From an uncultured Candidatus Saccharibacteria bacterium (GTDB taxonomy: Bacteria; Patescibacteriota; Minisyncoccia; Phycocordibacterales; JACOZG01), in the NCBI GenBank assembly GCA_964648765.1, contig CAZYLF010000002.1:3537-67536 (forward strand): a DNA stretch of 64,000 nucleotides, in the 5' to 3' direction. The notes beneath the pieces are model-generated. The model had not been told where the DNA came from and made no database searches. It saw only the letters and a program-made list of their open reading frames with translations. The translations under genes and the position numbers were made by a program. Of this stretch, positions 20,932-40,983 are shown piece after piece. Each line of letters begins with the position of its first letter. Position 1 is the stretch's first letter.

Positions 20932-21111
20932 ATGCTATCTCCTAAAAATGTTACTCAAAGTTAACTATTTATAAATTAACACATTATGGCAAAAAAGCAA
21001 ATATTAATAAAACCATAGCAATTTTGAATTTTTTTTGTTACTATCACGCTTGATATTCTGAAAGATGAATATCATATTCCGGCGTGGCGCAGTGGTAGCG
21101 CAGTCGCCTGT

Positions 21112-21693
21112 GGACAGGTTCTTGGCTTACAGATGGTATACTCAACTGAGTTATGCCACGAAAAGAAACAAGAACCTATGCTGATCGAGCAGCCTATATG
21201 GTAAGGGCCGTTTCTTTAAGAAGAATTAAGTTAAGGAAAATGGCTCGAGAATACAAAGGTGGTAAATGTGAAATTTGCGGTTACTCTAGATGTGAGCGAG
21301 CGCTAAGTTTCCATCATCGAGATCCTAAAAAGAAATCCTTCGGGATATCAGACAGAGGTCTAACGTATTCTTGGCAGAGGATAAAAAACGAAATTGATAA
21401 GTGTGTCCTCCTCTGCGCTAATTGTCATATGGAATTGCACGACGGTTTTACGCAGCTTCCCGCTGTAAAGCGGGTTGAAAAATGAGGTGAATTCGGTGAA
21501 GTCCCATGTGGATAATACCGAGCCGAGCCCGCCAACATCCGAAAGGTTGTGGCGGGAAGGTGTAGAGACTATCTCGCAAGAGAGTACTTCTCGCTAAATA
21601 AAATTAACGAGACGGAAGCGCCTCACATCCCACTCACTGAAAAGTGAAGGATGATGATCTAGTCCATCCCTTTAAGCAATTAGAGGATAAATG
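21112..21693 (+). other. group I self-splicing intron (putative) carrying an HNH homing endonuclease ORF
   Basis: It lies between the tRNA halves. The 3'-terminal G, the R/S-like elements (ggtgtagagactatc … gatgatctagtcc) and an internal HNH ORF support the call. The exact P1 and boundaries are unverified. Confidence 0.55.
21153..21485 (+). CDS. HNH homing endonuclease (intron-encoded)
   Basis: CEICG…HHRDPKKK…CANCH zinc-finger/HNH motif; 110 aa. Confidence 0.7.
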   Translation: MPRKETRTYADRAAYMVRAVSLRRIKLRKMAREYKGGKCEICGYSRCERALSFHHRDPKKKSFGISDRGLTYSWQRIKNEIDKCVLLCANCHMELHDGFTQLPAVKRVEK

Positions 21694-21719
21694 TAAGCGA
21701 TTGGTCGTAGGTTCGAATC

Positions 21720-23390
21720 CTACCGCCGGAGCCTGACTGACAAAAGTGGCACATGATGCCACTTTTGTTGTATTTGGCCTGGCTTTTTAGAGGTTCGAGC
21801 GTGCTCTATTTCCTGCATAATAGCTTCTCGTGCTTTTATGAGGCTCAAAAAGAAAGAACTGTAGGAAAGCTGGATCTTTTTGTCGGAAATGGTGAGGTTC
21901 GAGCCAAGGCATGCGAGTATCGCTCTTTTGGTCTTTTCATCTCCATTTGCGTACCAAAGATGGGCGTAGCACGCAAAGTCAAAGGTTTGCTCTGATAGTT
22001 CTGCCCATTGTTCAACTGCCTTATTCTTAATCTTCAACTCGTCTTCAAGAAGGCCCTTCTTTCTGAGTAGGTCTGATTTTAAGGACTGATATTCCTGTTC
22101 GCCAATGATGGTTCGAGCCTTGTTGGATGGTGCGGTGAAGTTTAAGGTTAAAGACTGCAGCTGCTGCGTTACTTCTTCACACTCCTTGTGTTTGGTCCTT
22201 ATTGCAATTGAATCACTCTCGGCCTCAGTCTTGCGGACCTCATGAACATGGCGGACCGCCCAGTCACGATACTCTTCTGAAATTCTTATATCTTTAAGGA
22301 TCGCTCCAATCTGTAGATGTAGCAGTTTTACTTCTACATGCTTTTCAGTACAACCGGCATCATATCTCTTTTTGGTGCAGTTATAGTAGACATAATGATG
22401 GACGTTGCCGTTCTTGCATCGCTTTACTTTTGCTTGAGCTGTAATACTACAACCACAGGTGGCGCATTTCATAAGACCAGTAAAAGCAAACATTCGCTCC
22501 TCATGTCGTGGGCGTGGTTGATTGCTTCGGCCCATAATTTTTTGGACCCTATCAAATTCCTCTTTGGTAACCATTGGCTCATGCGCTCCTTTATTCCAAT
22601 TACCACTGTGTAGCGGAAACTCAAACCAACCGTAATAAAATGGATTCCCTAGGACTGCATAAATTGCTGATCGAGAAAGATGTTCGCCGCCAATGTTTCT
22701 ACGTGGGACCGTCCGGAGATTCAATTGCTTTCTTGAAATATTCCAAATCTGGGCCATTGAATAGTTGCCGGTAAGAGCAAGGTCAAAAAGTCTTCGGACC
22801 AAGGGAAACCTTTCAGGATCTCTTTCCAAAGTCTTATAACCCTTTTGCTTGTTTGGAGTATTGAGGTATCCGATTGGTGCGCCACTTGGCATCCAGCCAT
22901 CTCTCACTTTCTTTTGCAGACCTCGCTTCACATTCACTGATAGGTCTCGAATAAACTGGTTGGCCATTCCAAGTTCCACCTGCATCATGAGGACGTTGTC
23001 TGTCGGATAATAGGTTCGGCCGAAGGTGACGATCTGGGATATCGCACTCTGCTGCAACATCCAGCTTATCTGGCCACCATCGACAGGATTACGGGCTAGG
23101 CGGTCCAGTTTCCAGCACAGGATGCCATTGGCTTCGCCTTTATAGATTCTTTCAAGCATTGAGTTGAATACTTTCCTGCCTGGCTTCTTGGCTGATTGTG
23201 ATTCTTCAAGGATATCCAGGATTTGTAGACCTTGATCCTTTGCAATCTTCATAAGCTCGTCTTTCTGAGCATCTATGGACGCCGCTTGACGGTCTTCTGC
23301 CTCGCTGGATTTACGTGCGTAGAGGAAATATTTAATTGGTTGATTTGTCTGGTTCATTGTTTGTTTGTGTGTCAGATATGTGGGTCTCAT
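21720..23390 (-). CDS. large serine recombinase (resolvase/invertase N-domain + recombinase domain + zinc ribbon)
   Basis: N-terminal YARKSSEAEDRQ…SIDAQ catalytic Ser region, central recombinase domain and C-terminal CATCGC…C cluster. The stop overlaps the tRNA 3' exon by ~12 nt. Confidence 0.85.
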   Translation of the reverse strand: MRPTYLTHKQTMNQTNQPIKYFLYARKSSEAEDRQAASIDAQKDELMKIAKDQGLQILDILEESQSAKKPGRKVFNSMLERIYKGEANGILCWKLDRLARNPVDGGQISWMLQQSAISQIVTFGRTYYPTDNVLMMQVELGMANQFIRDLSVNVKRGLQKKVRDGWMPSGAPIGYLNTPNKQKGYKTLERDPERFPLVRRLFDLALTGNYSMAQIWNISRKQLNLRTVPRRNIGGEHLSRSAIYAVLGNPFYYGWFEFPLHSGNWNKGAHEPMVTKEEFDRVQKIMGRSNQPRPRHEERMFAFTGLMKCATCGCSITAQAKVKRCKNGNVHHYVYYNCTKKRYDAGCTEKHVEVKLLHLQIGAILKDIRISEEYRDWAVRHVHEVRKTEAESDSIAIRTKHKECEEVTQQLQSLTLNFTAPSNKARTIIGEQEYQSLKSDLLRKKGLLEDELKIKNKAVEQWAELSEQTFDFACYAHLWYANGDEKTKRAILACLGSNLTISDKKIQLSYSSFFLSLIKAREAIMQEIEHARTSKKPGQIQQKWHHVPLLSVRLRR

Positions 23391-24231
23391 TTACTGGCTC
23401 TGCCCATTTTTCGCCGTTTTTAAAGGGTGGTTCCGTAGTATCTGATTGGATACTACTGACTTCCCGTAAATTTCCCGTTATATCGGGAAAATTATCTCCG
23501 TTTTCTGTGGGTCTCACTACCTCACTTAAGGGTATGTTTCCTTCATAGGCTGTCTGGACGACATCATGCCCAGAAGGGTCTTGAATAGCAACTTCTAGTG
23601 GTAGCTGCCACTTATGCATTTTTCTTTTAAGAACATCTCCAATGCTAGTTAAAGAATTCGGGGATTTATTATTTTGGTTAGTTAGAGTATCTACGTTAAT
23701 ACTACGGTTCCTGCGTTTTCGGATACTACGGAGATGTATATCTGGATACTGCGCAACTGAATCTTTAAGTTTGAGACGCCCTTTAACATGGGCAATGCTT
23801 TTCCAAAAATCGACCGACTTAAAGTAGTACAGGTTCAGAGTTTTGAATCCACTCTTTGTCTGAACCACACCAAGGATGCTGCACTCAACAAGAAGCCGGA
23901 CCGCATTGGCAACATAGTTTCTATTCTTCTCCCCAGTTAAGTCTTGAATCGTGGTTAAGCTTGGCCAGGCGACTTGTGTCTGTGTATTTCCATGTTTCAA
24001 GATTGCGCAGTAAACAAGCGTGCAGAGCTTTGGCAACTTTTCCATATAGCCATGCTCTACAAATTCATTCTCCACGAAAAATCGAGTAGGCTTTCTCTTA
24101 CCGCGCAATAAGGACCGGTCAATCTGATTCTTCAGTTCCTCGATCTTCGCCTTGTGGTAGGCATGAGCTATCTCCACTTTCTTTTTCTTCGGGTCCAACC
24201 ACTCGAGGAAATACTTCTCGTTGTTGTTCAT
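23332..24231 (-). CDS. putative replication initiator / winged-helix DNA-binding protein
   Basis: wHTH-like segment LCTLVYCAILKHGNTQTQVAWPSLTTIQDLTGEKNRNYVANAVRLL; located next to the iteron-like array. The start may be the internal Met (24045). Confidence 0.45.
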   Translation of the reverse strand: MNNNEKYFLEWLDPKKKKVEIAHAYHKAKIEELKNQIDRSLLRGKRKPTRFFVENEFVEHGYMEKLPKLCTLVYCAILKHGNTQTQVAWPSLTTIQDLTGEKNRNYVANAVRLLVECSILGVVQTKSGFKTLNLYYFKSVDFWKSIAHVKGRLKLKDSVAQYPDIHLRSIRKRRNRSINVDTLTNQNNKSPNSLTSIGDVLKRKMHKWQLPLEVAIQDPSGHDVVQTAYEGNIPLSEVVRPTENGDNFPDITGNLREVSSIQSDTTEPPFKNGEKWAEPVNETHISDTQTNNEPDKSTN

Positions 24232-24388
24232 ATTCTGTAAGCCACACCTTTTTCACAGGCCGATAGACAAGATCAAAGACCGTCAGGAGTTTGGTAGCTT
24301 CTTCAACAAGAATTTCATCTGATGGAACCTCGCCATGTTCCTGGCGATAGATCTCTCGATATTCATCTAGTGCTTGTTTACTTAGCAT
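24119..24388 (-). CDS. small protein homologous to the 33511..33735 ORF (function unknown); C-terminal part overlaps next gene
   Basis: N-terminal 45 aa (DEYREIYRQEHGEVPSDEILVEEATKLLTVFDLVYRPVKK) align with ESFQVLYKTHFNKDISRAEAVEKGTKLLTLMKAVYKPMTKE. Confidence 0.45.
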   Translation of the reverse strand: MLSKQALDEYREIYRQEHGEVPSDEILVEEATKLLTVFDLVYRPVKKVWLTEYEQQREVFPRVVGPEEKESGDSSCLPQGEDRGTEESD

Positions 24389-24499
24389 GATGGTGTAGTG
24401 TTTGGTTAATAATTTCGACCTTTAGTCTCTTCCAGAAATAGAAAGAGCTGAGTCCCAGTTGCAAGTGACTCAGCTCTTTCCATGCAACTGGATGTTATG

Positions 24500-24860
24500 T
24501 ATCGTAGATCCTATTTCGTGCAAAATTGCGTGCATTACTTTGGGACCATCCGATTTGTCTATTCTGAGGCCCTATATTTTCCTAATTGCAGGAATTACTT
24601 CGGACCAAAGAACTATCTAATCCTAGTGCTTAAAAAAAGCAAAACATGGTGTATTACTTTTTATGGCTAGGATTATGGATTTATCCTAAGGTGTATAAAG
24701 TTCCTAACTGTAGGAATTACTCTTACCCCCCGAGGACTGTCTTAATCCTATTGTCTAAAAAGTGAAAAATGCGTTGCATTACTTTCATCTCCTCGGACAG
24801 TCATATCCTAAGAGCAAATGTAGTGCATTTCGGTGTGCATTACTTTTCCTTTAGGACCAG
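24500..24860. repeat. iteron-like array: 6 degenerate tandem repeats of ~61 bp each containing ATCCTA and TGC(G)TGCATTACTTT motifs
   Basis: kGCATTACTTy occurs at 24531, 24591, 24651, 24714, 24776 and 24836. ATCCTA occurs at ~24507, 24619, 24682, 24744 and 24805. The array lies in the intergenic region upstream of the rep-like/recombinase genes. Confidence 0.7.
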
Positions 24861-24975
24861 GTAAGTATGAGGTCCGAAGAAGTGCAAATTAGTGGGTATT
24901 GGCCGAGACAACGTAAAAAGCCCTGAATAGGCTTGGAAAAGCGTACACAGGGCTGTTTAGGGTCAAATTCGGTGT

Positions 24976-27900
24976 CTACAATATGTTCTCTCGCAATAAA
25001 TAAGCTATTACCGAAGCCTTTTCCAAGAGGAAATCCAAAATGATGAGAATCTGATTTTTTAACTGCGGATTAGTCTTGATCTTTTGCCGATTTTTAAGAA
25101 TGTAACTCCTCACAAGATTCTCCAGATAATAAACAGTGTTTACTTCTAGTTCCTTACGAGAAAGATCTGGATTCTTCTGTAGCAAATCACTAATCCAAGC
25201 AATACCCTCAGGAACAAAATTACTACCTATATCATTCAGAAGTTTTGTCAAAGCATACAAGACAGGGGTATTACCTCCCATATCTTCAGATACTTTCTTA
25301 AAGAAAGTCTTTTCTCTGTCTTTCAGAGAGCGCCATTCTTTCGCCCCTTTCTTCCATTGCAATGCTAGGAGGTATTTATGAACAACACTTTCAGCGTATC
25401 TAAGGTGATTTTCATCTGAGCATAGTTCCACAATCTTCGGATAGAAAACCTTCCAAACAGTCCAAAATTCTTCGTATTGATTTATAGAATCTTCCGCAAT
25501 AACAAACGCTTCTAGTACATCAGCCACAGCTTTCCTTCGCCTGAAATCACCAATGAGTTCCGTAAATGGCTTCACATACGTTTCAATTTCTTCTTTTGGA
25601 GAATAGAGGACAAAGTAAGCAAACTTATCTAAAAATCTATGTTCAAGCATATAGTCCAGACGCTCTTCCTTGTCCTCATTCTTAAATGCTTCTATGAGCA
25701 CAGGGCAAATTTCTCGTAAAAACTTCTTATGATTCTCGTCACTAGTTTTTAGCGGTACCAGCAGAAAAGCAGTTACGAGTATGCCGGGATCTATCTCTGC
25801 AACATTCTGTAGATCTGTATAAGAGAGTTGATTTGATAAGGCTTTATTGATCTGGGCTTTGCACTCTTTTTTAAAACGCTTTATGACAGAGATTGTAGAG
25901 AAGTCATATTTTTGTTTCTTTCGACTCTCTTCTCGAATAGACTCGCTTATTTCATCAAACTTAGGTTTAAGAAATAAGTACCCATGGAATATAGCTTTTG
26001 CATCCTCGGGACTTTCTGACCACAGATGTTGCAGAACTGCCGCGACCGCATAATCAGAGACTCGTTGGCTCATACCAATCGGATAGGAGTCGAAAAGAAC
26101 GAGAAGAAGTATCACTTTGATTTTTTCAGCATCCTTGGGAAACTTTTTGATCAATAGAGGAAGGACGTTAACTGATGCTTCTAATCCGTCGCCAACCTGA
26201 TATCGAAAACCTGCCTTCAAAGGCATAGATGCATAATCGAGTACTACTTTTTTACAAAACTCTGTATCCTTAGGAGACAGTTTGTCTGAGTAGTCTCGCA
26301 AAAGTACGGCACAGACATATGATGGAACTGACCGGTAGAATAATCTGAATTGACTCTCTTCGAGTTTATCTTTATCTAGCTGTTCCAGGATTGCTTTCGT
26401 TTCAGAAAGCGCGAGCACAGGATCATTTTCATATTGTGGGTAATTTTTTACTTCTTCCTTTCTTTCAAACTTATGACTCGACCATAATTGCAAAGGTGTA
26501 TATTTCAATGCTTCGGAACTTTTTGCCTGCGCTTCTTCACTGTGTTGTCTTAACTCTGGATCAATCTCAGGGTTGAAACTAATAAGAACTTGATCGTCTT
26601 TTTTCTCTGTAGTTATCTTCATTTTTCGACGATCCATTCTTGCCAAACAAAGTCTCCAGGTTTTATCACCATCAGTCTCTTTTGATTTGTTAGGTAGTTT
26701 TGCATAGTATTCATCAAGTATTTTCCATACCTCTTCCTGTCTAGTTTTAGACACTTCTTCCGCTTCGCCCTCATTCGCAAATAACTGATAGTTAAGTGCC
26801 TGATTTTCAAGTGAGTGATTACGATGCTTATCTTCACAAGTCTGCAGCCTCTCGTTCTTGAATAAGCCCATTGGATCATGGGCCATCGAGTAAGTGAACT
26901 TCGCACTACTCATATCGAGGTACATTCTTGAAGAATCAAAGAAAAAGAAATCCTTAGTTCTGAAAAGAATTTTTGCAATATTGAATAGCTTCGACGGTTC
27001 GGCAAGAACAGCGCTGACTACTACTGCAGTAATCGAGACGGATCGAGAATTTTTGATGAGATAAAGGCACCACTTCTCTACAACTTCAGGATCCCAGGTT
27101 TTTGCTATACCGAGCAACCAATGCTCCAGAGCCATATGAATAGATTCAAGTAATGGTGGAGCAACCTGCGTTCCCCGATATAAATTCCAAATTCTGTGAC
27201 AGGCATATTGTTTGATAGTTTGACCCGAAGCATCTACTACGACATCTATTTCTTCAGCTTCGTACTGCGCGAATTCTGATTTGGCAAAATACCCGATCGA
27301 CTTATTAGTAAATGCTAAAATAAAGTTGACCGTTTCCTGAGGGGCGACTTGCAACATCGTTCCTATTGGTGTCTGAAAAGCACTAGCTGGGTAATACTCA
27401 AGATGGCCCTCCGTGAGATCAAAGTATTGCTCTATGCCATTCCTGTAATCAGAATATGAATGCCTATCTTCACGAGGTTTATAAAACCAAAATAGATTTG
27501 CAAGTTTTATGATTTCTTTCGGAAGATGACGTGCAACTTCGGTGCTATTGATAATTGAAGAAAGCATCACTTTTACCAATTCGTAATATCGAGTTCGATG
27601 GGATGTATCCTGCGCGGCAATGACTCCATCTACAATTTCAGTCAACTCTTCTTTTATTTCCCCTGAGCCACTAAGAATAGTTCTGATGAGTTGCTCTTTG
27701 GAGCTATCACGAGAACTGAAGTAAAAATCATTCTTGGCTGTAAGGGTGTTGTAATAAAACAATGCAATCTGACTTGCTTCCTTAGTAGTTTCTCCTTGCT
27801 TATTACTTCGGTTCCAATCATCCAGTACTGGGAGGATGACATGCATATACATAAGTTGAAGCCTGTCCTTATGTTTGTTGACGAAAGCAATGGCAGAAGA

Positions 27901-29814
27901 CCACCCACTACCTTTAGGAGTCGTAAATATAGTTTCTAGTGTAAGTGCATTTGCTCGAGTTAAACCCAGACGATTCAAGAAATTGTCATCTACAGTCTTG
28001 CAGGCAATTCTCAGCAAGAAGAGAATTCTGTGTAGCAGTCTTTGTTCGATCTTGTAATTAACATTAACCACCCTAATCACTTTGGAAGAGCTTTCGACAG
28101 AAACGACTCGTTCAGGTTCCTTAAGTAATTCTTCTTCAAAAAGATCAAAGAATACTTTTGAATAATCTGAGAGGAGTACTGAGACTAAAACCTCATCTTT
28201 CCAATAATTCTCAACGGAACCATCTTGCACCGTAAATGCAATCAACTTCTTTGCTTTTTCATCACTTGCAAAAAGTTTGTCGGATAGCCAATTTCTAAAG
28301 GCACGTCGAATTGGAAGCGAACTACCTATTTCAGTGTAAAAATTATCGAAGCTGGTAGCAGTGCTAAAGGCCCTCTCGATAATCATATCTAAAGCCCACT
28401 CTTCATATACATCGTGTGTTATGAAGTATCCGCCAGCGTTTGAATCAAATTTGATAATCTCGCTCGCTTCTAGTTTCTGAAGCGCTTCATGATCAGATTC
28501 TCCAGTCCTAACGAAGAATCCTCCCTCATTTGCACGTTGCTTAGCGATCTTCAAAAAAGACTCTTCTCTTCGTCTGTGTAAATTATTTGATTGAAAACCT
28601 GAATTCTGGATCTGCTTCTTCCAAATAATTTCGCGAAAATCAGTATAGCTAATATCTGCCTTCGTCTCAGTATAATCCTGTAAATACTCACTCAGATAAA
28701 GTGGCGTTGAAAGAAGGCTTGCAAGTCTGTCATTTTTAGGAAGCTTGAATTTATGTGTCCTTGCGATTAATTCAATTTCTTCACTGGAAAGATGTGGAAT
28801 ATTCAGGGATGCAAAATTCGCTCCGTAGAATTCTTTTAGTTGGAAACGGAGATCATCAAGATAGTTATGTCGCACTGTAAAAATAACTTTCCAACCATTT
28901 GTGACTAACTCAGACAGAAACATTCTGAACACATCTTGGTCTTCGATTTCTGAAAGTCTTTCAGCCGAGTCAAAGACTACATACTTCTCATTGATATCTT
29001 TATGCTCAGCAATAAATTCTGCTGCAGTGATTTCTCCATAATCCTTGAAAAGTTGGTTTATATGGGAAGCACTTTTAAATTGTGTAACCTTAAAGACGAA
29101 AAAGGGTGTGGAATCCTTTACTGTTTCGTAAAGATCTTTTATTACCGCAGTTTTACCTACCCCTGCACCACCACTTAAAACCACAAGCGGAAAAGTTTGA
29201 GCGGTATCTTTAACACCACCCACAACAGAAGAACGGTCTAGTTTGATTGCACTTTTCCCAAAAGAGATCTCTGAACGGATAGGCTGAAGTACTGAATCAG
29301 TATATTTCTGGAGTTCAATAATGGAGTCGATGATGCCCTTCTTAAGACTAAAGAAATGTTGCGCGATACTAAAGTTCTCTTCGCAAACAAATGGCGATTC
29401 AAAGTAGCTTCCTGTCCGCCATTCGATCTCGACACCTTTTGACTTAGCGTGAGCTTCTATGTCCTTTTTGTATTGAGGATCTGTTTTCTTTTTGTCCTGT
29501 CCAAATTCTTGATTCGTATAGAAAATAATTTTATTTAGCTTCGGATGTCTCTCTTTGCCTTTATCGATGGATTCTTTAAAGTCGGCAGTATGTTGAGAGA
29601 GCGCTGTCGTATAAAATTTCGACTGCCAACCTACAACTAAGCCATTCTGTTCAACAGGATTGGTTTCGATACCAGCATGATTCTTGAACCTAAAAACACC
29701 AATATTTTTATTAAACTCCTTGCAAAATAAAAGATAACAAAGTCGTTCAAAAGCCCCTTGCTTATTACTACTAAATTTCGCACCGAAGTTGTCCCAATTC
29801 ACTTCCTGAATCAT
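24976..29814 (-). CDS. 1612-aa STAND-type P-loop NTPase (Avs-like architecture): putative N-terminal PD-(D/E)xK-like nuclease, central NTPase, long C-terminal helical repeat region
   Basis: Walker A VVLSGGAGVGKTAV, Walker B KYVVFDSAE, sensor VIFTVRHNY (hhhTxR) and then ~1250 aa of helical repeats. The first ~130 aa (…GIETNP…VVGWQSKF…) are a possible E…QxK nuclease-like core, which is speculative. Confidence 0.75.
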   Translation of the reverse strand: MIQEVNWDNFGAKFSSNKQGAFERLCYLLFCKEFNKNIGVFRFKNHAGIETNPVEQNGLVVGWQSKFYTTALSQHTADFKESIDKGKERHPKLNKIIFYTNQEFGQDKKKTDPQYKKDIEAHAKSKGVEIEWRTGSYFESPFVCEENFSIAQHFFSLKKGIIDSIIELQKYTDSVLQPIRSEISFGKSAIKLDRSSVVGGVKDTAQTFPLVVLSGGAGVGKTAVIKDLYETVKDSTPFFVFKVTQFKSASHINQLFKDYGEITAAEFIAEHKDINEKYVVFDSAERLSEIEDQDVFRMFLSELVTNGWKVIFTVRHNYLDDLRFQLKEFYGANFASLNIPHLSSEEIELIARTHKFKLPKNDRLASLLSTPLYLSEYLQDYTETKADISYTDFREIIWKKQIQNSGFQSNNLHRRREESFLKIAKQRANEGGFFVRTGESDHEALQKLEASEIIKFDSNAGGYFITHDVYEEWALDMIIERAFSTATSFDNFYTEIGSSLPIRRAFRNWLSDKLFASDEKAKKLIAFTVQDGSVENYWKDEVLVSVLLSDYSKVFFDLFEEELLKEPERVVSVESSSKVIRVVNVNYKIEQRLLHRILFLLRIACKTVDDNFLNRLGLTRANALTLETIFTTPKGSGWSSAIAFVNKHKDRLQLMYMHVILPVLDDWNRSNKQGETTKEASQIALFYYNTLTAKNDFYFSSRDSSKEQLIRTILSGSGEIKEELTEIVDGVIAAQDTSHRTRYYELVKVMLSSIINSTEVARHLPKEIIKLANLFWFYKPREDRHSYSDYRNGIEQYFDLTEGHLEYYPASAFQTPIGTMLQVAPQETVNFILAFTNKSIGYFAKSEFAQYEAEEIDVVVDASGQTIKQYACHRIWNLYRGTQVAPPLLESIHMALEHWLLGIAKTWDPEVVEKWCLYLIKNSRSVSITAVVVSAVLAEPSKLFNIAKILFRTKDFFFFDSSRMYLDMSSAKFTYSMAHDPMGLFKNERLQTCEDKHRNHSLENQALNYQLFANEGEAEEVSKTRQEEVWKILDEYYAKLPNKSKETDGDKTWRLCLARMDRRKMKITTEKKDDQVLISFNPEIDPELRQHSEEAQAKSSEALKYTPLQLWSSHKFERKEEVKNYPQYENDPVLALSETKAILEQLDKDKLEESQFRLFYRSVPSYVCAVLLRDYSDKLSPKDTEFCKKVVLDYASMPLKAGFRYQVGDGLEASVNVLPLLIKKFPKDAEKIKVILLLVLFDSYPIGMSQRVSDYAVAAVLQHLWSESPEDAKAIFHGYLFLKPKFDEISESIREESRKKQKYDFSTISVIKRFKKECKAQINKALSNQLSYTDLQNVAEIDPGILVTAFLLVPLKTSDENHKKFLREICPVLIEAFKNEDKEERLDYMLEHRFLDKFAYFVLYSPKEEIETYVKPFTELIGDFRRRKAVADVLEAFVIAEDSINQYEEFWTVWKVFYPKIVELCSDENHLRYAESVVHKYLLALQWKKGAKEWRSLKDREKTFFKKVSEDMGGNTPVLYALTKLLNDIGSNFVPEGIAWISDLLQKNPDLSRKELEVNTVYYLENLVRSYILKNRQKIKTNPQLKNQILIILDFLLEKASVIAYLLRENIL

Positions 29815-29819
29815 CGTAT

Positions 29820-30983
29820 TTACCGATTTCCTTTTGCTCGATTGTGTGTCTTACACAACATTTCGCAATTTTTAATATCGGTCTTTCCACCCTTACTCCA
29901 GGCCGAGACATGGTCGGCATCCATATCTGCTAGACTCCAAATCTTATCTTTGTTCGCATCGTGACCGATCGCACAATGTGAACAGTTAGAAGTACCTTTC
30001 TTCTTTGCGGCAGCAGTTTGAGCTTCATAGACTGAACGTTTGGTTGAGTCCTCAAATACTCGAACTTCAAGTAGTTTTGTTTCGACCTCTCCTCCTAAAA
30101 CATACTCAAAAATACCTTTGCGATTTTTTACAAAACCGTCGGCATAGAGTTTCTGAACCGTAGCAGATACTTTAGCGGGATTATATTTTTTCTTATGATA
30201 CGTTTGGTAGAGTCTATTCCACTCAAGGCCTTTCATCTCGCTTTCAACTTCAGTAAATGTAGTTGAAATCCAATCAATAACAATTTCGAAATGCTTTTTT
30301 AGCTCGGTAATGTTTTTGTCGTTGCGATGCTTGCTCATGTAACTATCGATATCACCACCAGAAACCCAATCTAAGGCTCGTTCCAAATATGCCTGGCGTT
30401 TAATATCACCTGCAATGTACGCACTCCATTTCTGGACGTTAGCGTTCTGACTGTTACTAAATTCTTCACGCGCAAGTGTGACAAATGGTCCAGAATATAC
30501 CGCATTAAGAATCTCTTGTTCGGTTAAAGGAACTCCCGCAATATTGATAGTCTTAAACCAGTCTTTGATCTCCGGCTCATCACCCTCACATACATATACC
30601 AACAACTTAGTATTCATGATTTGCTCTCGTTGGCTCTCAGCCATGCCGCTGTAGTACTGTTCATGGCCATTCCTATCTTTGACAGCAAACTTTCCTGTCA
30701 CAAAGCGGCCAATACTTGTGATACGCTGCTGACCATCTAACACCTCAAACTTATCTTTGCCAGCTTGATTAAAATAAATTAAACCTATTGGGTAACCTTT
30801 CAAAATTGAGTCAATCACAGCAACGTCACGCTTACCATCAGCATAAATATAATTACGTTGATACTCTGGTTGAATAGTTAATTTTCCAGATAGACCAAAC
30901 AACCCCTTTCCTTCGAGTTCGTTGTAGACGAAGCCGTCGCAAACTTCTCTAATTGTAATGTCATTTTTTAAGGTTGTTTTCAT
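29820..30983 (-). CDS. DUF262 (ParB-like nuclease/NTPase) – HNH endonuclease fusion (GmrSD/SspE-like architecture)
   Basis: [19 protein letters not shown] motif; C-terminal CSHCAIGH…[12 protein letters not shown]…[17 protein letters not shown] motif. Confidence 0.8.
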
Positions 30984-30985
30984 AA

Positions 30986-32107
30986 TTATTTTTTCTTATG
31001 TTTGATAAATAACTTTTTAAATGTTTCTTTGCCATTTATATAGGTACTACGTCCGTAAACACCTTCAGGATCCTGACCAATTCCTCGGTTTGCACCAAGT
31101 ATCTCAAACTGCTCAGAAGAATATTTGTCCATAAAACTTATCGGCACGCCAATAACACCACCATAGTCGCTTGGGATCGCATCTACATACGAAACATCAA
31201 TGGCATCGTAATTATCATATTTATCATATGATGTTTTACCCTGCATTTTTTTGTTGAACTTTAAGTTATCTTCCATACTCATTAAGCTGAGTGGTTGATG
31301 TCTTCGCCCATGATCCAAATTAGTGTACCAACGCACACCCTGGACTCTCGTGATATAAACTTTTTTACCTTGTTCATTTACCTTTATTTCACGTACCTGG
31401 TCTAGATTAGCTATCGCCTCAGGTATTTCGTAAAACATAGCTCCACCGTTCACTTTTGCATTATTGCCAAACCATACTTTGTTTGCCTTAATCATAGGAA
31501 AAACTTCTTTGTATGTAATCGCGTTCATATTTCCAATGATCAAAAATTGCTTTTCGTAATCAAAAAGTTGCGTAATGTATTCACGAAATAAACTAAATGG
31601 AGGATTGGTGACTACAATGTCAGACTGTTTGAGTAACTCAACACATTCATCACTTCTAAAATCACCATCGCCCTCAAGCGGAGACCACTCGTTATTTTTG
31701 TTAGCTCTAAGTTGCTTAGCAATATCTTCTAGTGTAAAAGAACCATCGCCATCAACATCACCAACCTCGTTAATAATAAATTTGTTAGCAACAACTTTTG
31801 GTCGCCCTTTGACTGGTTTGAGGGTAACGTCATCGCCGAATAGTGTTATTTGAGTGTTCGCAACTGGAGAGGGTTTGTAACTAGTTGTAATAAGTCTTTT
31901 TAGTCCTAAACGATTAAAATTCAAGACGAAGTAACGAAAAAAGTTACTTTCAAACGGGTCATCACAGTTACTGTAAATTACCTTACCTTTAAAAGTATTC
32001 GGGTTATATTCAAGATATGATTCCACCTCTTTTTGAATATCAGAAAATTGAGTATAAAACTCATCATTTTTTGCTTTTTTTGCGTCTCTTAGATTCTTGT
32101 TTGCCAT
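30986..32107 (-). CDS. N6-adenine DNA methyltransferase (gamma-class; DEFYT motif X, NPPF motif IV)
   Basis: NDEFYTQF and [11 protein letters not shown] motifs. The start is set at MANKN (32107), which avoids overlap with the Fic gene; the ORF track extends to 32206. Confidence 0.75.
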
Positions 32108-32111
32108 AAAT

Positions 32112-33014
32112 TTATTTCTGTTTGCCAGGGCTATAAACAAACCCTTCTGCAATCTTCCAAACACCTTTCTCTCGGAAAGCTGGGATGTTTTGACGACGAG
32201 CGGCATTAGTTAGCGCAGATGCTGATGCGTGGCTTGTCTTTGCATAATCAGAAAGAGTAACGATCTTCTCGCCCTTAAGATAAGTAATTCTTTTGTGGAG
32301 TGATTCGGTAAGAGAAAGCGCGAGGATCTTTTCCATCTTCTTTGCAGTCTTCTTGTCTCGATATTCAGCAAAGGTGCTGTAATAATCCTTTTTTTCTTTG
32401 TCTCGAATGATAATTCCAGGGAAACCAAGTCTCTGGAGTTGGTAATTTATAAGTACACGACCAATACGACCATTGCCATCACAGAATGGGTGAATAGTTT
32501 CAAATTCAAGGTGGAATTTTGCAATCCTGTCTACAAAAAATGACTTAACATCAGCAACATACTCTGACAAAAGTGCATCAATCATTTTTTCTACTTGTTC
32601 AGGGGCCGGAGCAACGTGTGTACCAACTCTCACATATTCACCGATCTTTCTGAAACGACCGGCAATATCATCTTTAATCCCGCCAATAAGCATTTGGTGG
32701 AGGAATAAAATAACTTCTCTGTTTACTTCAGTTTCTTGAGATTTATTTCTAATGTAAGCAACAACTCGAGCAAGATTCTTAGCCTCGAACACTTCTCGGA
32801 CCGAAACTTCACGAGCTACTTCCATTTCCAAAAGAATCTTTTCCGTCTCCTGGAGAGTAAGGGTTGAGTTTTCGATGGCGTTTGAGTTATAAACCGCCTC
32901 GGCAACCTCCGCCTCATCTACCATAACCAAAAGTGACTCTTTTCCTTTTTTAAGAGCTTCGTATTCGGTCTTGAGGTTTTGGATTCTATTTACGAGGGGT
33001 TTTGTAATTGCCAT
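32112..33014 (-). CDS. Fic/Doc family protein (AMPylase-type Fic motif)
   Basis: Canonical Fic motif HPFCDGNGRIGR. Confidence 0.85.
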   Translation of the reverse strand: MAITKPLVNRIQNLKTEYEALKKGKESLLVMVDEAEVAEAVYNSNAIENSTLTLQETEKILLEMEVAREVSVREVFEAKNLARVVAYIRNKSQETEVNREVILFLHQMLIGGIKDDIAGRFRKIGEYVRVGTHVAPAPEQVEKMIDALLSEYVADVKSFFVDRIAKFHLEFETIHPFCDGNGRIGRVLINYQLQRLGFPGIIIRDKEKKDYYSTFAEYRDKKTAKKMEKILALSLTESLHKRITYLKGEKIVTLSDYAKTSHASASALTNAARRQNIPAFREKGVWKIAEGFVYSPGKQK

Positions 33015-33039
33015 ATGTTTTAGTTAATTAACCTTTAAT

Positions 33040-33068
33040 ATTATAGGGTTTTCACTACTTCTTGTCAA
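33040..33068 (-). promoter_or_regulatory. promoter (minus strand) TTGACA-N17-TATAAT driving the Fic-MTase-HNH-STAND operon
   Basis: Reverse complement reads TTGACAagaagtagtgaaaacccTATAAT. Confidence 0.6.
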
Positions 33069-33197
33069 TTTTTAGTGAATGATAGGCTATTTTAGCACCT
33101 TATTCACTAGTTTTTGCTATATAACCCAGTAATCTAAGGTACTTATAAGGTGTGGTAAGGCCTTTACTTTTTTGACTTCTAGGAATAATGTTGCGAC

Positions 33198-33506
33198 ATG
33201 AGTCAATTATTAATATCAGTTGTAGGAGGTCTTCTTGTTATAATCATCGCTGCTATATTCGGCCTTGGTGGGAACACAAAGGTAACTGTCCATGGTGGTG
33301 GAAGGGTTAAGAAGACAGGAAAATGGATAATCATTATCTCGGTAGTGATGTTTTTCATAGGACTTTCCCTATGCAAAAAGAGTGATCCAACTCAGTGGGG
33401 CTTTGATCTAAATATTTCCTCTACTCTCTACGGCGTTACAATCATGCTCTACAGTGGATTATTTTTTGTTGTCGGTAAAATTGTAGCCTGGTTTCAAAGA
33501 CCATAA
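33198..33506 (+). CDS. small membrane protein, 102 aa
   Basis: Three TM helices. Confidence 0.45.
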   Translation: MSQLLISVVGGLLVIIIAAIFGLGGNTKVTVHGGGRVKKTGKWIIIISVVMFFIGLSLCKKSDPTQWGFDLNISSTLYGVTIMLYSGLFFVVGKIVAWFQRP

Positions 33507-33510
33507 ACTT

Positions 33511-33735
33511 ATGCAGCTCGCAGACAAAGACATCGAGAGTTTTCAGGTGCTGTATAAAACGCATTTCAATAAAGATATTTCGCGTGCAGAGGCAGTAGAA
33601 AAAGGCACCAAGCTCTTAACATTGATGAAAGCTGTTTATAAACCCATGACCAAGGAACAGTTCGATGCTATCCAGAAACGGAGAAAAGATACATTACCAG
33701 CTTTGATTAAAAGACTGGAACAAGATCAACTCTGA
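33511..33735 (+). CDS. small protein homologous to the 24119..24388 ORF
   Basis: See the alignment above; 74 aa. Confidence 0.5.
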   Translation: MQLADKDIESFQVLYKTHFNKDISRAEAVEKGTKLLTLMKAVYKPMTKEQFDAIQKRRKDTLPALIKRLEQDQL

Positions 33736-34115
33736 AACTCTACCTCGAACGGATACATTCCCATTCCGCAAGTTCCTTGGAGTGTGCCGAGTTTGCCTTC
33801 ACCAATATCAATATCAGTTGAACCTGTTTGTGGAAGCGATTTGCTTATACCCATACTTGGAATTCGAACTGATGATGAACAGTCAAAGGTTCCTTTAGTG
33901 TTGAATCTGATGATTGTTGGAATACCGGCTTTTGCAATACTCTTTCGGGGTTGATATCCACCCCTCGCAGTTATTTCGATAATCTGCTTTCCGTCTACAA
34001 CGCTAACGTTGTTTGCATTTGCCACCTGTCCAGTGTCACCACCACTTCTGGTGAGCATAAAAGCTCCACCGATGAGGACTACTGCTACAATAATTGAGAT
34101 AATAGTTGCTTTCAT
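33726..34115 (-). CDS. membrane-anchored periplasmic beta-sandwich (cupredoxin/CopC-like?) protein
   Basis: N-terminal TM anchor then a beta-rich domain with a GTCGMGMYPFEVEF Met/Cys-rich end. The start is set at the internal Met, which follows TATAAT-N8 (leaderless-like). Confidence 0.45.
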   Translation of the reverse strand: MKATIISIIVAVVLIGGAFMLTRSGGDTGQVANANNVSVVDGKQIIEITARGGYQPRKSIAKAGIPTIIRFNTKGTFDCSSSVRIPSMGISKSLPQTGSTDIDIGEGKLGTLQGTCGMGMYPFEVEFQS

Positions 34116-34128
34116 AATTGGAATTATA

Positions 34129-35160
34129 CTAGAAGTTAAAGACTGGCGGAATAACCCCAATCACGACCAAACTATTAATAAGATTGAAGAGAGCGAACAT
34201 GATCACGATCAGTCCTGCCGTCTTGAAGAAGATACCTGCCTTTGAACTCTTTTGAATACTGAACGAGCTGAAGCTGATGAGAGCCAGGACCGGCAACGTA
34301 CCGAGTGCGAATGCGAGCATGGTAAGTCCTCCGGTGAGAAAACTTCCTGTGGTAAGGGTATAAAGCTGCATCGATTGAGTGAATCCGCATGGCAGGAAGA
34401 AGGTTGCAATACCAACGAGAAGCGGCGTGAGAGTGTGATTGAACTTCGATACACCATGAGCATGCTTGGCGATAAACTTCGGCATTGATGGCTGAAGTTT
34501 CTTGGCCCAGTGAAATGTGTCGAGGAGATTGATACCAAGGATAAGCATGACGATACCAATTATCAAACTCAATACAAATGTTGCAGAAGTGTTGAGTGTG
34601 AACGCCGATCCAATAGCACCTATAACTCCACCCAGGACAAAGAATGAGGCGATTCGTCCGGCATGGAACATGAGCTGAGGTCGAACCTTGTCACCCTCTT
34701 TGGCGAAAGTGGCGGACATCGATAGGACCAGACCACCGACAACTGCCATACAAGTTGAAAGCGATGCGATAATACCGATCACAAATGCGGTCCCGTAAGT
34801 TACGTTGCCTGCACTGACAAGATTTACAATTCCCATTTTCTGCAGCACTACGAAGAGCACCGCGAAGCCTAGTGCGATCGGGACGGCAATCTTGAAGTCT
34901 CCCCATTTGGCATTGTGCTGCTGTTTTTCAACCGAGACAGTATAGCCATGAGGTTTGAGCGGTATGGTGAGTTCCTCTGCAATCTGCTCCGGTGTCTTAC
35001 CACCAAAGTCTCCGGTGACTTCCATTGAATGGTGCTTTAGACTTAATTTAACATGGGTGACATTTGGCAAATCTCCAATCTCGCTTTCGGTCATAAGTAC
35101 ACATGCGTTGCAGTGCATTCCATGTACGTGAAAGGTGTATTTTTGTGTTTGTGTAGTCAT
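34129..35160 (-). CDS. heavy-metal-associated (HMA) domain fused to a multi-TM membrane domain (DsbD/CcdA- or TauE-like)
   Basis: N-terminal HVHGMHCNACV HMA motif followed by ~8 TM helices. Confidence 0.65.
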   Translation of the reverse strand: MTTQTQKYTFHVHGMHCNACVLMTESEIGDLPNVTHVKLSLKHHSMEVTGDFGGKTPEQIAEELTIPLKPHGYTVSVEKQQHNAKWGDFKIAVPIALGFAVLFVVLQKMGIVNLVSAGNVTYGTAFVIGIIASLSTCMAVVGGLVLSMSATFAKEGDKVRPQLMFHAGRIASFFVLGGVIGAIGSAFTLNTSATFVLSLIIGIVMLILGINLLDTFHWAKKLQPSMPKFIAKHAHGVSKFNHTLTPLLVGIATFFLPCGFTQSMQLYTLTTGSFLTGGLTMLAFALGTLPVLALISFSSFSIQKSSKAGIFFKTAGLIVIMFALFNLINSLVVIGVIPPVFNF

Positions 35161-35174
35161 TGGTAATTTCAGTC

Positions 35175-35390
35175 TTATCTCTGCTCTCTTTCAAGTTGTC
35201 GACGATAGAGAGCGCATACACCGGCTGAGATCGAGATGAGCGTGAGAACGATGGCATCATTGATGCAGTGCTGATACGTAAAGCCCCAGATAGTTCCGCC
35301 TTCGCCTGCAAGCCATGCGCCGATAAGCGCTAGTGCTCCCCAGATTGCCGTTGCGATTGATACTCCATGGATAAATGATGATTTTTTCAT
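35175..35390 (-). CDS. small membrane protein, 71 aa
   Basis: Two TM helices. Confidence 0.4.
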   Translation of the reverse strand: MKKSSFIHGVSIATAIWGALALIGAWLAGEGGTIWGFTYQHCINDAIVLTLISISAGVCALYRRQLEREQR

Positions 35391-35420
35391 AAGATTTATG
35401 TTAATTATTTTTAAATAAGT

Positions 35421-36062
35421 TTACTTGTACCACTGAACATACCAAGACTGCATCTGCTGAATCTCCTTTGATTGTGAGGAGATAATGTTCTTTGCGAGCT
35501 GCTGCATTTCAGGACGATTTGTACCTGACTGAAGCATGTTCGCCATCATGATCGCCAACTGGTGATGCGGAATCATTTCCTCGATAAATGCCTTGTCAAA
35601 ATCAGAGGCGTTTTCTAGTGCTGTCATATCCTCCTGTCCACCCATGTGCATTCCATATCCAGACATCATGCCGCCACCCATCATTCCTGTGCTTACCTTT
35701 GGCACAGCGCTTCCGAACCAATCCTGGTACCAGCCATTCATACTTTGAATCTCCGTTGTCTGAGCTGCAATAATGGCCGTTGCTAGAGTTTTAATTTCAG
35801 GATGCTTTGCTTTTTGAAGCGCAAGGTTTGCCATGGCGATAGCTCCCTCATGGTGAGGAATCATCTGCTCGATAAAGTGTTTGTCGATGGTGCTGGCGAC
35901 TTGGTTATTTCCAGGCACTCTTTGGTCATACGATGAGTTATTTCGCCAGTTCATCATTCCGTAGCCTCCATATCGAAACATCGGAGTGAGCACTGAAACA
36001 AGAAGAATTCCAATAACTATTCCTCCTATTCCATATAATATTTTGTTGTTTTGATTGTTCAT
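35421..36062 (-). CDS. DUF305 family protein (duplicated HH(E/Q)xAI motifs)
   Basis: MIPHHEGAIAMA and MIPHHQLAIMMA repeats are typical of DUF305, which is associated with copper resistance. Confidence 0.7.
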   Translation of the reverse strand: MNNQNNKILYGIGGIVIGILLVSVLTPMFRYGGYGMMNWRNNSSYDQRVPGNNQVASTIDKHFIEQMIPHHEGAIAMANLALQKAKHPEIKTLATAIIAAQTTEIQSMNGWYQDWFGSAVPKVSTGMMGGGMMSGYGMHMGGQEDMTALENASDFDKAFIEEMIPHHQLAIMMANMLQSGTNRPEMQQLAKNIISSQSKEIQQMQSWYVQWYK

Positions 36063-36085
36063 ATTTTTGTAGTTAGATTAATAAG

Positions 36086-36286
36086 TTACTCTCCGGCGTA
36101 CTTCACAGGATCGGCTGTGAAATGATTCTTGCAGTGGATAGCGCAAAAGTAATAGGTTTTACCTTTGTAGTCTGCGCTTGCCTTAATACTGTCTGCATCA
36201 AGTTCCATTCCGCAGACCAAGTCGAAAGCAACTGCCGGATCAAGATTTTTATACTTTTTATTGCCTTTAAGCTTTTTTGTTTGCAT
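36086..36286 (-). CDS. YHS/TRASH-domain small metal-binding protein
   Basis: VCGMELD…YYFCAIHC motif. Confidence 0.65.
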   Translation of the reverse strand: MQTKKLKGNKKYKNLDPAVAFDLVCGMELDADSIKASADYKGKTYYFCAIHCKNHFTADPVKYAGE

Positions 36287-36399
36287 AGATTTTTGAGATT
36301 AGAAATAGTAATAGAAGCTCTATGCAAAGAGGGGCTGTTTTCAAATAATGAAAGCCAACGGGTAATTTTCCGAGGACGACTAAGTTGCCGTTCTGGATC

Positions 36400-36720
36400 A
36401 AGTCGTACTCGACATAATATCCGACTGGCTAGGATAGAATCTCGATGTTTTATGTAAAGGAATCCTAGGCTGAGAAATACAGCAAATAGAAGCGCGAGTA
36501 AGAAAATAAATGGAACTGATGGGACCACGCTGAAGAACGATATGAATGCTTGGATGTGATGGACCGACATTGCCGCAATGTTTTCCGGACATGGTGTATT
36601 GTCTACGGCCGATGCAATACAACCAGTGGCATGATTAGCCCCATGACTCATTGAGGTAAAACCGAACACCCCTATTACCAGGACACTTGTGATTATTAGT
36701 AATGAGAGGAGTTTTTTCAT
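36400..36720 (-). CDS. small secreted/membrane His/Cys-rich protein (N-terminal part of ORF 36103..36720)
   Basis: Signal/TM then SMSHGANHATGCIASAVDNTPCPENIAAMSVHH. The ORF reads on through the YHS gene in another frame, and that tail looks non-coding, so the 3' end is uncertain. Confidence 0.35.
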
Positions 36721-39053: not shown

Positions 39054-39057
39054 ATTT

Positions 39058-39330
39058 TTATTTGCGCTTAAGCTTATAAACCTTAAGGATTTCATCGACA
39101 GCCTTCTTTTCACTGCCATGCTTCATTTGATGAACAACGTGTGTTGAAAGATGGTTCTCAAGAACCAAGTCCTCAATGCCGGTGAGTGCCTCTTTAATGG
39201 CGGACACTTGGGTGATAATGTCGATACAATATTTTTCCTCCTCAACCATCTTTTGCAAACCTCTGATTTGTCCCTCAGTAATTTTTAATCGGCGAATAGC
39301 TTTTGTTTTGATATCTTGTCTCATATACAT
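39058..39330 (-). CDS. csoR: CsoR/RcnR-family metal-sensing transcriptional repressor
   Basis: 90-aa helical protein with the conserved C…H…C (YCIDI…HLSTHVVH) CsoR pattern; lies upstream of copA. Confidence 0.75.
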   Translation of the reverse strand: MYMRQDIKTKAIRRLKITEGQIRGLQKMVEEEKYCIDIITQVSAIKEALTGIEDLVLENHLSTHVVHQMKHGSEKKAVDEILKVYKLKRK

Positions 39331-39335
39331 ACATA

Positions 39336-39352
39336 ATACCCCCTAGGGGTAT
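39336..39352. promoter_or_regulatory. candidate CsoR operator (GC-tract palindrome ATACCCCCTAGGGGTAT)
   Basis: Near-perfect inverted repeat immediately upstream of the csoR start. It resembles known CsoR operators (TACCC-N-GGGTA type). Confidence 0.55.
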
Positions 39353-39609
39353 AGGAGTCAATCGCAAGATATCAACATTTTTTAAACCAGAGCCAGCTGT
39401 TCGCTTGTTGGCCGGACCAAAGGATAGATCCCATCCTTCAAATTAGGGATGTAATGGTAGTTACTTGTGGTCCTGAAATAGGTAGTTATTTCATCAACAA
39501 CGCGGAGCAAAATTAAGCGCCCATTGAGGGCGTTTTAATTTTGCGAACGGCGGAGCAATAAAGATTAGACACTGTGTTTTACCTTTTAAATTGAGTCTTT
39601 TTATGGTTA

Positions 39610-40697: not shown

Positions 40698-40983
40698 TCC
40701 TTACCCCTGCCCCAGAGATCACATCAAAGGGGCTTTTTTCTTTAGTTGACGCAGATTAAGAATTTGCTAAGATGTTGAGGTAACGTTCTTTGACAACAGA
40801 ATATATATCAAGAGTGAGCTGAGGGAATGGCCCGATGAAGCTCCGACAACCTGCCCCATAATCTGTGGGCAAGGTGCCAAATCCAACCCCTGCGGGAAGA
40901 TATCTATCTGTTTAAAGTAATTCAATAGAAACAACACCGCACTCGCGGTGTTGTTTCGTGTTTATCTTTAATAAGGAGAGAAA

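Follow-up and report, generated by a model that had tools for sequence, protein, structure and literature searches.

Serine integrases are usually described at protein-coding or intergenic sites; among tyrosine integrases, that of the Myxococcus phage Mx8 targets a tRNA locus. The enzymes of phiC31, Bxb1, A118 and SPbeta (SprA) combine a Resolvase domain (R-x-S-S) with a Recombinase domain, a Cys4 zinc ribbon and a long coiled coil, and the large serine recombinases (LSRs) of phages and of integrative and conjugative elements (ICEs) act on short attachment (att) sites that share a very small identity core. Here we describe an LSR that resembles them in all these respects, encoded in a 64,000-nt stretch of DNA (contig CAZYLF010000002.1 of an uncultured Candidatus Saccharibacteria bacterium; hereafter the window). 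The clade to which it belongs shows weak sequence similarity to the phage and ICE enzymes, uses tRNA 3' ends instead of protein-coding targets and carries the attachment site of the element (attP) inside the open reading frame (ORF) of the recombinase. Positions 21733-39508 of the window very probably represent a 17,776-bp integrative plasmid-like element that its own LSR integrated at the 3' end of a tRNA-Asn(GUU) gene; the gene for this LSR contains attP and is split in the process.

The closest serine-recombinase precedent, by its published description, is found in streptococcal ICEs with a single serine integrase that targets rumA. The gene of this integrase contains one direct repeat, and integration therefore swaps the 3' ends of integrase and target and alters the C-terminus of the integrase (Ambroset et al. 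2016, PMC4701971). The rumA elements are conjugative, reside in Firmicutes, use a protein-coding target and change both reading frames, and neither a conserved displaced tail nor restoration of a frame was described for them. In the element of the window, by contrast, the target tRNA stays intact, a conserved tail of 40 residues is displaced, the hosts belong to the candidate phyla radiation (CPR) and no conjugation genes were found.

Disruption of the integrase's own gene has been stated to be exclusive to Archaea, where it occurs with the SSV-type tyrosine integrases of SSV1, pTN3 and pT26-2 (PMC7253208, PMC8371274). As in the window, attP lies in the ORF, integration distributes the gene over the two ends of the element, the tRNA targets vary across the family and the backbones are plasmid-like. 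The archaeal enzymes are, however, tyrosine recombinases (Phage_integr_3, PF16795) in which a short N-terminal part is separated from the catalytic C-terminal part, leaving two inactive pseudogenes, whereas here a serine recombinase loses only the last 40 of 594 residues and the large fragment remains an intact ORF. For Mx8, a passage in PMC6070905 (citing Tojo 1996 and Magrini 1999) states that attP lies in the 3' part of int and that integration creates a new 3' end, which modifies the activity but does not destroy it. Mx8 is a single system, a tailed phage with a tyrosine recombinase; the window LSR belongs to a large clade with many tRNA targets. Finally, tyrosine-integrase islands (P4/lambda-like, as collected by Islander/TIGER) share with the window the use of the tRNA 3' part, an integrase beside the tRNA, a functional tRNA and cargo for defence or metal resistance. 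Such islands rebuild the tRNA gene by duplicating a long stretch of its 3' part, usually tens of bp, whereas the window element shares 6 bp with its target (relatives up to 13) and replaces the terminator, not the tRNA body.

A systematic LSR survey analysed only protein-coding target genes and left tRNA unmentioned (PMC10083194), and our literature searches returned no account of a serine integrase acting at a tRNA gene or occurring in Patescibacteria, with the limitation that island databases may hold uncommented calls. The enzyme class and the idea of an attP within the ORF are thus known already; new are the 3' ends of many tRNA species as targets, the conserved displaced tail with restoration of the frame, the element hairpin embedded in coding sequence, and the lineage. 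The system is a convergent bacterial serine-recombinase counterpart to the archaeal design. The initial annotation had singled out an LSR next to a tRNA as worthy of attention, and by these comparisons it is indeed unusual.

Element boundaries and the empty site

A 6-bp direct repeat, CGGAGC, flanks the element, with the attL core at 21727-21732 and the attR core at 39503-39508. It equals tRNA positions 69-74 and covers the acceptor 3' strand, the discriminator and the first C of CCA. The reconstructed empty site (attB), taken as the 24-mer CTACCGCCGGAGCAAAATTAAGCG, has a single exact match in the metagenome collection, in contig L082 from a groundwater sample. L082 is 100% identical to the window over the tRNA 5' exon, follows the 3' part of the intron and the 3' exon to 21732, and then continues straight into 39503-39556 at 98% identity; the block ending at 21732 and the block starting at 39503 overlap by exactly the six nucleotides of the core. 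Because L082 joins 21732 to 39503 in this way, the element measures 17,776 bp (21733-39508). The reconstructed junctions read ...CCTACCGCCGGAGCAAAATTAAGCGCCC... for attB and ...TTCATCAACAACGCGGAGCCTGACTGACAAAAGTGG... for the attP circle. The initial annotation was right in taking the LSR for the integration module of a tRNA-inserted island.

The target gene is interrupted by an intron of its own. Run in intron mode, ARAGORN placed a tRNA-Asn(gtt) at 21078-21733 and an intron of 582 nt at its position 35; neither ARAGORN with default settings nor Rfam at the gathering threshold reported a tRNA near 21.7 kb, because this group I intron splits the gene. The T arm and the acceptor 3' strand are readable at 21707-21733, and the matching 5' half lies at 21078-21111. 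When all possible joins were tried, 21111|21694 was the only one to yield a canonical tRNA (Asn, gtt), and it fits the group I splice rules, with U preceding the 5' splice site and G preceding the 3' splice site. The plus strand thus carries the 5' exon (21078-21111), the group I intron in the anticodon loop (21112-21693; Rfam RF00028, 54 bits against a gathering score of 50, E 1.7e-12) and the 3' exon (21694-21733), which belongs to the host as far as the core. The intron, too, is a host feature outside the mobile element, and its ORF at 21153-21485 encodes a 110-aa HNH homing endonuclease (Pfam HNH). It is inserted between positions 35 and 36 of tRNA-Asn(GUU) and varies in relatives, being absent in L001, about 340 nt long without an HNH ORF in L082, and 269-569 nt long in L008, L002 and L003. 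ARAGORN further called introns of 200-570 nt in the tRNA-Thr genes adjoining the LSRs of L017, L021, L025 and L032.

The 5' part of the LSR gene, as it stands in the integrated state, occupies 21720-23390 on the minus strand and encodes 556 aa. Its stop codon TAG (cta, 21720-21722) sits in the 3' strand of the tRNA T-stem, which agrees with the overlap between the stop and a tRNA 3' exon starting exactly at 21694 that had been read from the sequence at the outset. Only the last two codons and the stop derive from the tRNA, read on its antisense strand. This position had been called the classic one for an integrase gene; the adjacency holds, but the recombination site lies inside the LSR ORF, and the 40-codon 3' end of the gene has been displaced.

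That the protein is an LSR follows from its domains, and catalysis with a 2-bp staggered crossover would be expected of it. Pfam finds Resolvase (PF00239, E 1.5e-20, residues 22-165), Recombinase (PF07508) and Zn_ribbon_recom (PF13408), that is serine-recombinase domains only and no tyrosine-recombinase domain, and the protein falls into PHROG 95 (integrase). R26, K27 and S28 are unchanged in all 37 homologues aligned, as are the zinc-ribbon residues C309, C312, C338 and C347 across the homologues. In the AlphaFold (AF2) model of P0002, an intact relative, the catalytic, recombinase, zinc-ribbon and coiled-coil parts are modelled well, with long helices at 361-471. Among proteins of solved structure, SPbeta SprA/YokA (9dxh, E 1e-10) is closest in sequence. 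No NCBIfam family reached its cut-off, and an exact-protein database look-up returned no record identical to the window LSR.

The tRNA side of the junction was compared in nine hosts. In each of them the acceptor 3' strand pairs with the host's own 5' strand, for example CGCCGGA/TCCGGCG in the window and CCACGGA/TCCGTGG in L001, and the sequence past GGAGCC belongs to the element, is common across loci and is identical in the window and L001. Acceptor co-variation and shared sequence beyond GGAGCC together place the junction at the very 3' end of the tRNA. In L001, the LSR protein is 97% identical and the DNA 91% identical to window positions 21694-24969, the host flank is unrelated and the tRNA-Asn is free of an intron. 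On the other side of the element, an intrinsic-terminator call at 39509-39545 (plus strand, hairpin 39515-39535) marks the original terminator of the tRNA-Asn, moved by 17.8 kb and forming the B' arm of the host; in L082 it lies directly 3' of the tRNA, at 98% identity.

Other candidates for the far end were discarded. A k-mer search of the whole window for another instance of the tRNA 3' exon or of the hairpin region gave chance-level 10-12-mers only, among them a 12-mer inside the Fic gene. Position 24970, where homology with L001, L015 and others stops, is contradicted by the empty site, and the Fic, methyltransferase (MTase) and restriction endonuclease (REase) genes as well as the copper operon recur upstream of other LSRs; judged from these alignments, 24962-24969 is the boundary between backbone and cargo.

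A motif resembling a tRNA end, CGGCGGAGC, is present at 39548-39556, 40 nt past attR, and the window and L082 part ways right after it. Beyond that point L082 resembles the far flank of L003 (GCGAGTG...CACTCGCGT.AGGATTCGAAA). The motif could have been left behind by an earlier recombination, or the difference could be an indel specific to the strain.

The split gene and its relatives

Merging the two CGGAGC copies produces an in-frame LSR ORF of 594 aa. The displaced 3' segment lies at 39382-39504 on the minus strand; its 40 codons (39385-39504), followed by the stop at 39382-39384, encode RVVDEITTYFRTTSNYHYIPNLKDGIYPLVRPTSEQLALV and lack a credible start codon of their own. The restored tail, RVVDEITTYFRTTSNYHYIPNLKDGIYPLVRP..., has homologues in the intact LSRs P0002 and P0023, where the tail is contiguous, and in L003, L013 and L018, where it is displaced; the segments of L003 and L013 are located upstream of their LSRs. 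P0002, encoded on contig L081, is a 584-aa protein 96% identical to the window LSR; no tRNA is present on L081, and the ORF runs beyond ...SVRL into DMVRDIGTFWKTNKEHIWLPNIKQGFFGIVQPTEAEMAEYR and a stop. L081 was also considered as the free form of the window element itself, an idea that was dropped: its P arm has no match in the window, and it is a related element.

The arrangement recurs widely. Genome hits number more than 570 in all. We sampled 80 loci encoding LSR relatives, almost all from Patescibacteria/CPR genomes, of which 72 were informative. The LSR ORF ends in or at a convergent tRNA in at least 48 of these 72 loci (Asn 19, Lys 7, Ser 6, Thr 5, His 5, Gln 3 and one each of Tyr, Leu and Ile, where the Tyr call and one of the Thr calls are probably intron-bearing Asn). 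Five further loci, including tRNA-Leu, tRNA-Arg and tRNA-Ser, have 'DSN/ESN' tails from the antisense T arm that were missed by the positional rule, which brings the isoacceptor types targeted to at least nine (Asn, Lys, Ser, Thr, His, Gln, Leu, Ile and Arg). Control ORFs, taken from the same loci with a minimum length of 150 aa, end in a convergent tRNA in 7 of 1132 cases (0.6%); the overlap of LSR and tRNA is far above chance. About 14 loci, many of them from non-CPR phyla, contain an intact LSR with the tail motif D(D/E)(V/F)RT. The family is nearly absent from viral contigs, where a family scan yielded one true relative and an exact scan for the P' arm no hits.

Antisense-T-arm tails are also found in 39 of the 120 closest database homologues. 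Many of the database LSRs (P0003-P0120) end in ...RRQDSNL, ...DQGSNLGHPP or ...WDSNPRPIG; read against the tRNA, these C-termini are translations of the antisense T arm produced by read-through across attL, not genuine ends.

Cores were searched as the longest k-mer common to the tRNA-end zone and the tail-start zone, unbiased, anchored on the tRNA end and with 10-kb flanks; this search superseded a naive longest-common-substring finder and a frame-forcing version, both of which returned spurious cores. Wherever both ends were in reach, the frame was restored (8 of 8 loci, the window included). In seven of them the cores measure 6-13 nt and lie within 3 nt of the tRNA 3' end. Given in tRNA sense, those of the relatives are CGGAGC (L003) and GAGCCAA (L018) at tRNA-Asn, CGGAGCA at tRNA-Thr (L017), and CCCTCCGCCAATT (L024), CTCCGC (L047) and TCCGCA (L035) at tRNA-Ser; the core of L008, at tRNA-Asn, is weak (4 nt). 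The seven relatives are 6.7-10.5 kb in size, compared with 17.8 kb in the window, and each has its own distinct terminator-like hairpin on the host side of attR.

The displaced tail is conserved as a protein, since third codon positions are the least conserved: pairwise identity over 11 tails was 0.61/0.64/0.41 at codon positions 1/2/3, and the same holds (0.57/0.57/0.37) in the distal tail, 30-60 bp from the core and beyond the typical LSR half-site. The frame of 40 codons stays open past the core in all 11 tails, and a motif D(D/E)(V/I)RT(Y/F)(F/W) occurs in unsplit members from other phyla as well.

Inside the LSR coding region, on the P' arm, the plus strand of 21736-21771 can fold into a terminator-like hairpin (RNAfold, -18.9 kcal/mol). 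Most of 49 split loci have a stable hairpin 4-7 nt past the tRNA end (median folding free energy -16.4 kcal/mol, median z -2.7). The hairpin sequences differ among split loci and the encoded peptide is not conserved; the hairpins of the window and L001 are identical despite unrelated hosts. Such an element-borne hairpin may substitute for the displaced tRNA terminator.

One locus deviates from the common organization. The LSR of L013 (10001-11728) has an intact tail of another type (AWQDAFRTYDW...) and no tRNA nearby, and a tail exon of the window type is found at 2450-2602, 9 kb upstream of the LSR. By analogy with chimeric archaeal suicidal integrases, this suggests tandem or hybrid elements.

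Possible consequences of losing the tail

Boundaries, core, empty site, the split and its restoration, the recurrence on many tRNA species and the coding conservation of the tail all follow from comparison between sequences. On this basis the following course can be proposed. A free, probably replicating form would produce the 594-aa LSR, with attP located inside the ORF about 40 codons ahead of the stop and its core CGGAGC mimicking tRNA positions 69-74, and this enzyme would integrate the element at the tRNA 3' end. Recombination of attP with attB would leave the tRNA whole and put the element hairpin in the place of the tRNA's terminator, where it would terminate tRNA transcription. At the same time the LSR gene would be split into a 556-aa part, which keeps the catalytic and DNA-binding domains and ends two codons into the antisense tRNA, and a 40-codon tail stranded at the far end beside the displaced native terminator. 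The integrated form could then yield the 556-aa enzyme only, and excision would rebuild the full gene. If loss of the tail changes the activity of the LSR while it is integrated, modifying but not abolishing it as in Mx8, the att site would double as a sensor of the integration state.

That the loss of the tail modifies activity or directionality is, as far as the sequences allow a judgement, nearly an even bet. The complete reading is put forward tentatively, as possible rather than probable: a large CPR clade of serine integrases would have independently evolved the archaeal design of an attP within its own gene, and the tail would act as an integration-state switch, with the full-length enzyme, produced by the free element alone, integrating and the tail-less one, produced by the integrated element alone, altered in directionality or activity.

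Several observations weigh against parts of this proposal. The truncated 556-aa LSR retains all recognised LSR domains, so the split may matter little for catalysis. In the AlphaFold model of intact P0002 the tail and its linker reach a predicted local distance difference test (pLDDT) score of 32-51, which is uninformative on docking of the tail; residues 519-549, the linker encoded by the hairpin, and the greater part of the tail are below 50, with a short helix at 542-555 only. As modelled, the tail resembles a short motif tethered by a flexible linker. A simple terminator scan did not call the window hairpin at 21736-21771. Neither a circular contig nor an attP junction of the window element was found, terminal overlap was seen in none of 21 complete contigs in a circularity test, and an episomal form is suggested by L081, a linear, unclosed contig. 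The crossover dinucleotide would lie somewhere within CGGAGC.

In an unlikely alternative, the split would be neutral: attP would overlap a dispensable 3' end of the LSR gene as the element is compact, truncated and full-length enzymes would act alike, and the tail would be conserved as P-arm DNA. Retention of the Resolvase, Recombinase, zinc-ribbon and coiled-coil regions in the 556-aa product and the low pLDDT of tail and linker are in line with this, as is the placement of the first ~9 tail codons on the expected P-arm half-site. The LSR ORFs of integrated copies are, in addition, intact in dozens of diverged loci, suggesting that these are no dead ends. Conservation as DNA, however, is hard to reconcile with the codon-position pattern of the distal tail, outside the typical half-site, with the peptide motif kept in unsplit members from other phyla or with the frame left open in all 11 tails.

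Equally improbable in our estimate is a 'suicidal' mode of the SSV type, in which removal of the tail would inactivate the LSR and lock the element unless a related episome supplied the full-length enzyme. The formal analogy with the archaeal SSV, pTN3 and pT26-2 integrases, with attP in their own ORF and tRNA targets (PMC7253208, PMC8371274), speaks for it, and so do the purifying selection on the tail and the two thirds of family members seen in the split state. Yet just 40 of 594 residues are lost, and no domain known to act in catalysis or DNA binding is touched; nearly all of the split 5' parts persist as full-length ORFs across 40-97% sequence divergence and are not decayed pseudogenes; and the 91% identity of the backbone in unrelated hosts implies recent mobility.

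The initial annotation had pictured an AT-rich island of ~11 kb ending near 33.0-33.2 kb with a second copy of the tRNA 3' segment, the LSR merely lying beside attL. GC content does fall to 0.37-0.40 at 25-34 kb, and the genes there are defence genes, but this smaller island is very improbable: no tRNA 3' repeat rises above chance level anywhere in the window, the copper operon (33730-38824) is found upstream of the LSR in L010, and the direct junction in L082 refutes it. The element is larger and includes this operon, which has ordinary GC content, and the repeat that was expected near 33.0-33.2 kb turned out to be the 6-bp CGGAGC, with its second copy at 39503-39508. A chance arrangement, with a resident chromosomal recombinase such as a developmental excisase of the XisF/SpoIVCA kind converging on the tRNA, has practically no probability left. 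Its one support is that XisF and Ccr recombinases are the best NCBIfam matches (far under their cut-offs); the tRNA is uninterrupted, which means that excision restores no gene, and the ~100-fold enrichment over control ORFs, the module at 91% identity in the unrelated host flank of L001 and the empty site refute it.

Backbone, cargo and implications

The element joins a plasmid-like backbone, consisting of the LSR, an HTH_36 protein, a small conserved ORF, six ATTACT repeats and a conserved terminal inverted repeat, to cargo genes. The HTH_36 protein (minus strand, 23332-24231; Pfam PF13730) has a putative function in replication or maintenance, and its gene adjoins the LSR also in L001, L003-L005, L008, L014, L015, L081 and the P0006 contig. 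The region 24499-24969 holds iteron-like repeats, in which six units with ATTACT recur at a spacing of about 61 bp, and the conserved end of the backbone with the inverted repeat at 24914-24959; homology with L001, L005, L007, L010, L013, L014, L015 and L019 ends at 24962-24969. The HTH_36 protein and the iterons may permit episomal replication; no match to a Rep family was found in NCBIfam or PHROGs.

Two small ORFs, 24119-24388 (minus strand) and 33511-33735 (plus strand), look paralogous (..EEATKLLTVFDLVYRPVKK.. and ..EKGTKLLTLMKAVYKPMTK..) and have no Pfam, NCBIfam or PHROG match. The former overlaps the start of the HTH_36 gene from the upstream side, and the DNA of this segment is conserved in several loci. 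Either ORF may encode a regulator or a directionality factor.

The cargo begins with an Avs4 STAND NTPase of 1612 aa (minus strand, 24976-29814; PADLOC Avs4, 1964 bits, full length). It is followed by a type II restriction-modification pair (minus strand, 29820-32206; Pfam, PADLOC REase_II/MTase_II), composed of a GmrSD_N-HNH fusion REase (29820-30983) and an EcoRI-like MTase (30986-32206), which recurs in L081, L038 and the P0006 contig. Next to it, a Fic-domain protein (minus strand, 32112-33014; Pfam Fic, PADLOC PDC-S04/SoFic) is present also in L008, L080, L081 and the P0006 contig. In the ORF list, 33198-33735 on the plus strand contains two small ORFs, encoding a 102-aa membrane protein and a 74-aa protein; L003 holds a homologue of this segment, and the 102-aa ORF adjoins Fic in the P0006 contig. 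The Fic, MTase and REase genes recur in the same order at other loci, and L081 shows a circularly permuted order. The block of replication-type and defence genes expected next to the LSR was thus recovered by Pfam and PADLOC.

A copper-resistance operon fills the remainder (minus strand, 33726-39330); by Pfam it encodes cupredoxin, DsbD_2-HMA, DUF305, P-type ATPase and CsoR proteins, and a protein of 205 aa lies between those with DUF305 and the P-type ATPase. Its part at 33730-38824 has ~80% DNA identity to the segment upstream of the LSR in L010. Directly upstream of the CsoR-family repressor gene (39058-39330), a perfect palindrome, ATACCCCCTAGGGGTAT, is located at 39336-39352 and is probably a CsoR operator at the promoter of the copper operon. 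Pfam and PADLOC found no relaxase, coupling protein or VirB4 among the element genes. Just beyond the element, a SAM (S-box) riboswitch (40802-40906; Rfam, 66.6 bits) precedes a Cob_adeno_trans-family gene (40984-41640).

For annotation, these data mean that the 'DSN...' tails of many database LSRs are antisense tRNA read-through, and that orphan 40-codon ORFs at island ends are missing 3' ends of integrases. With at least nine tRNA species as targets, the family widens the known recognition range of serine integrases and offers natural enzyme/att pairs for universally conserved sites. If the proposed switch exists, the tail could stand in for a separate recombination directionality factor (RDF), and an att core within coding sequence would evolve to fit the 3' ends of different tRNAs. 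The system makes it testable why the design with attP inside the gene persists, as RDF-free control of directionality or as a lock. To our knowledge, the mobile elements of CPR/Patescibacteria are little known; here, a precisely bounded and apparently recently mobile CPR element carries Avs4, restriction-modification, Fic and copper resistance between unrelated hosts.

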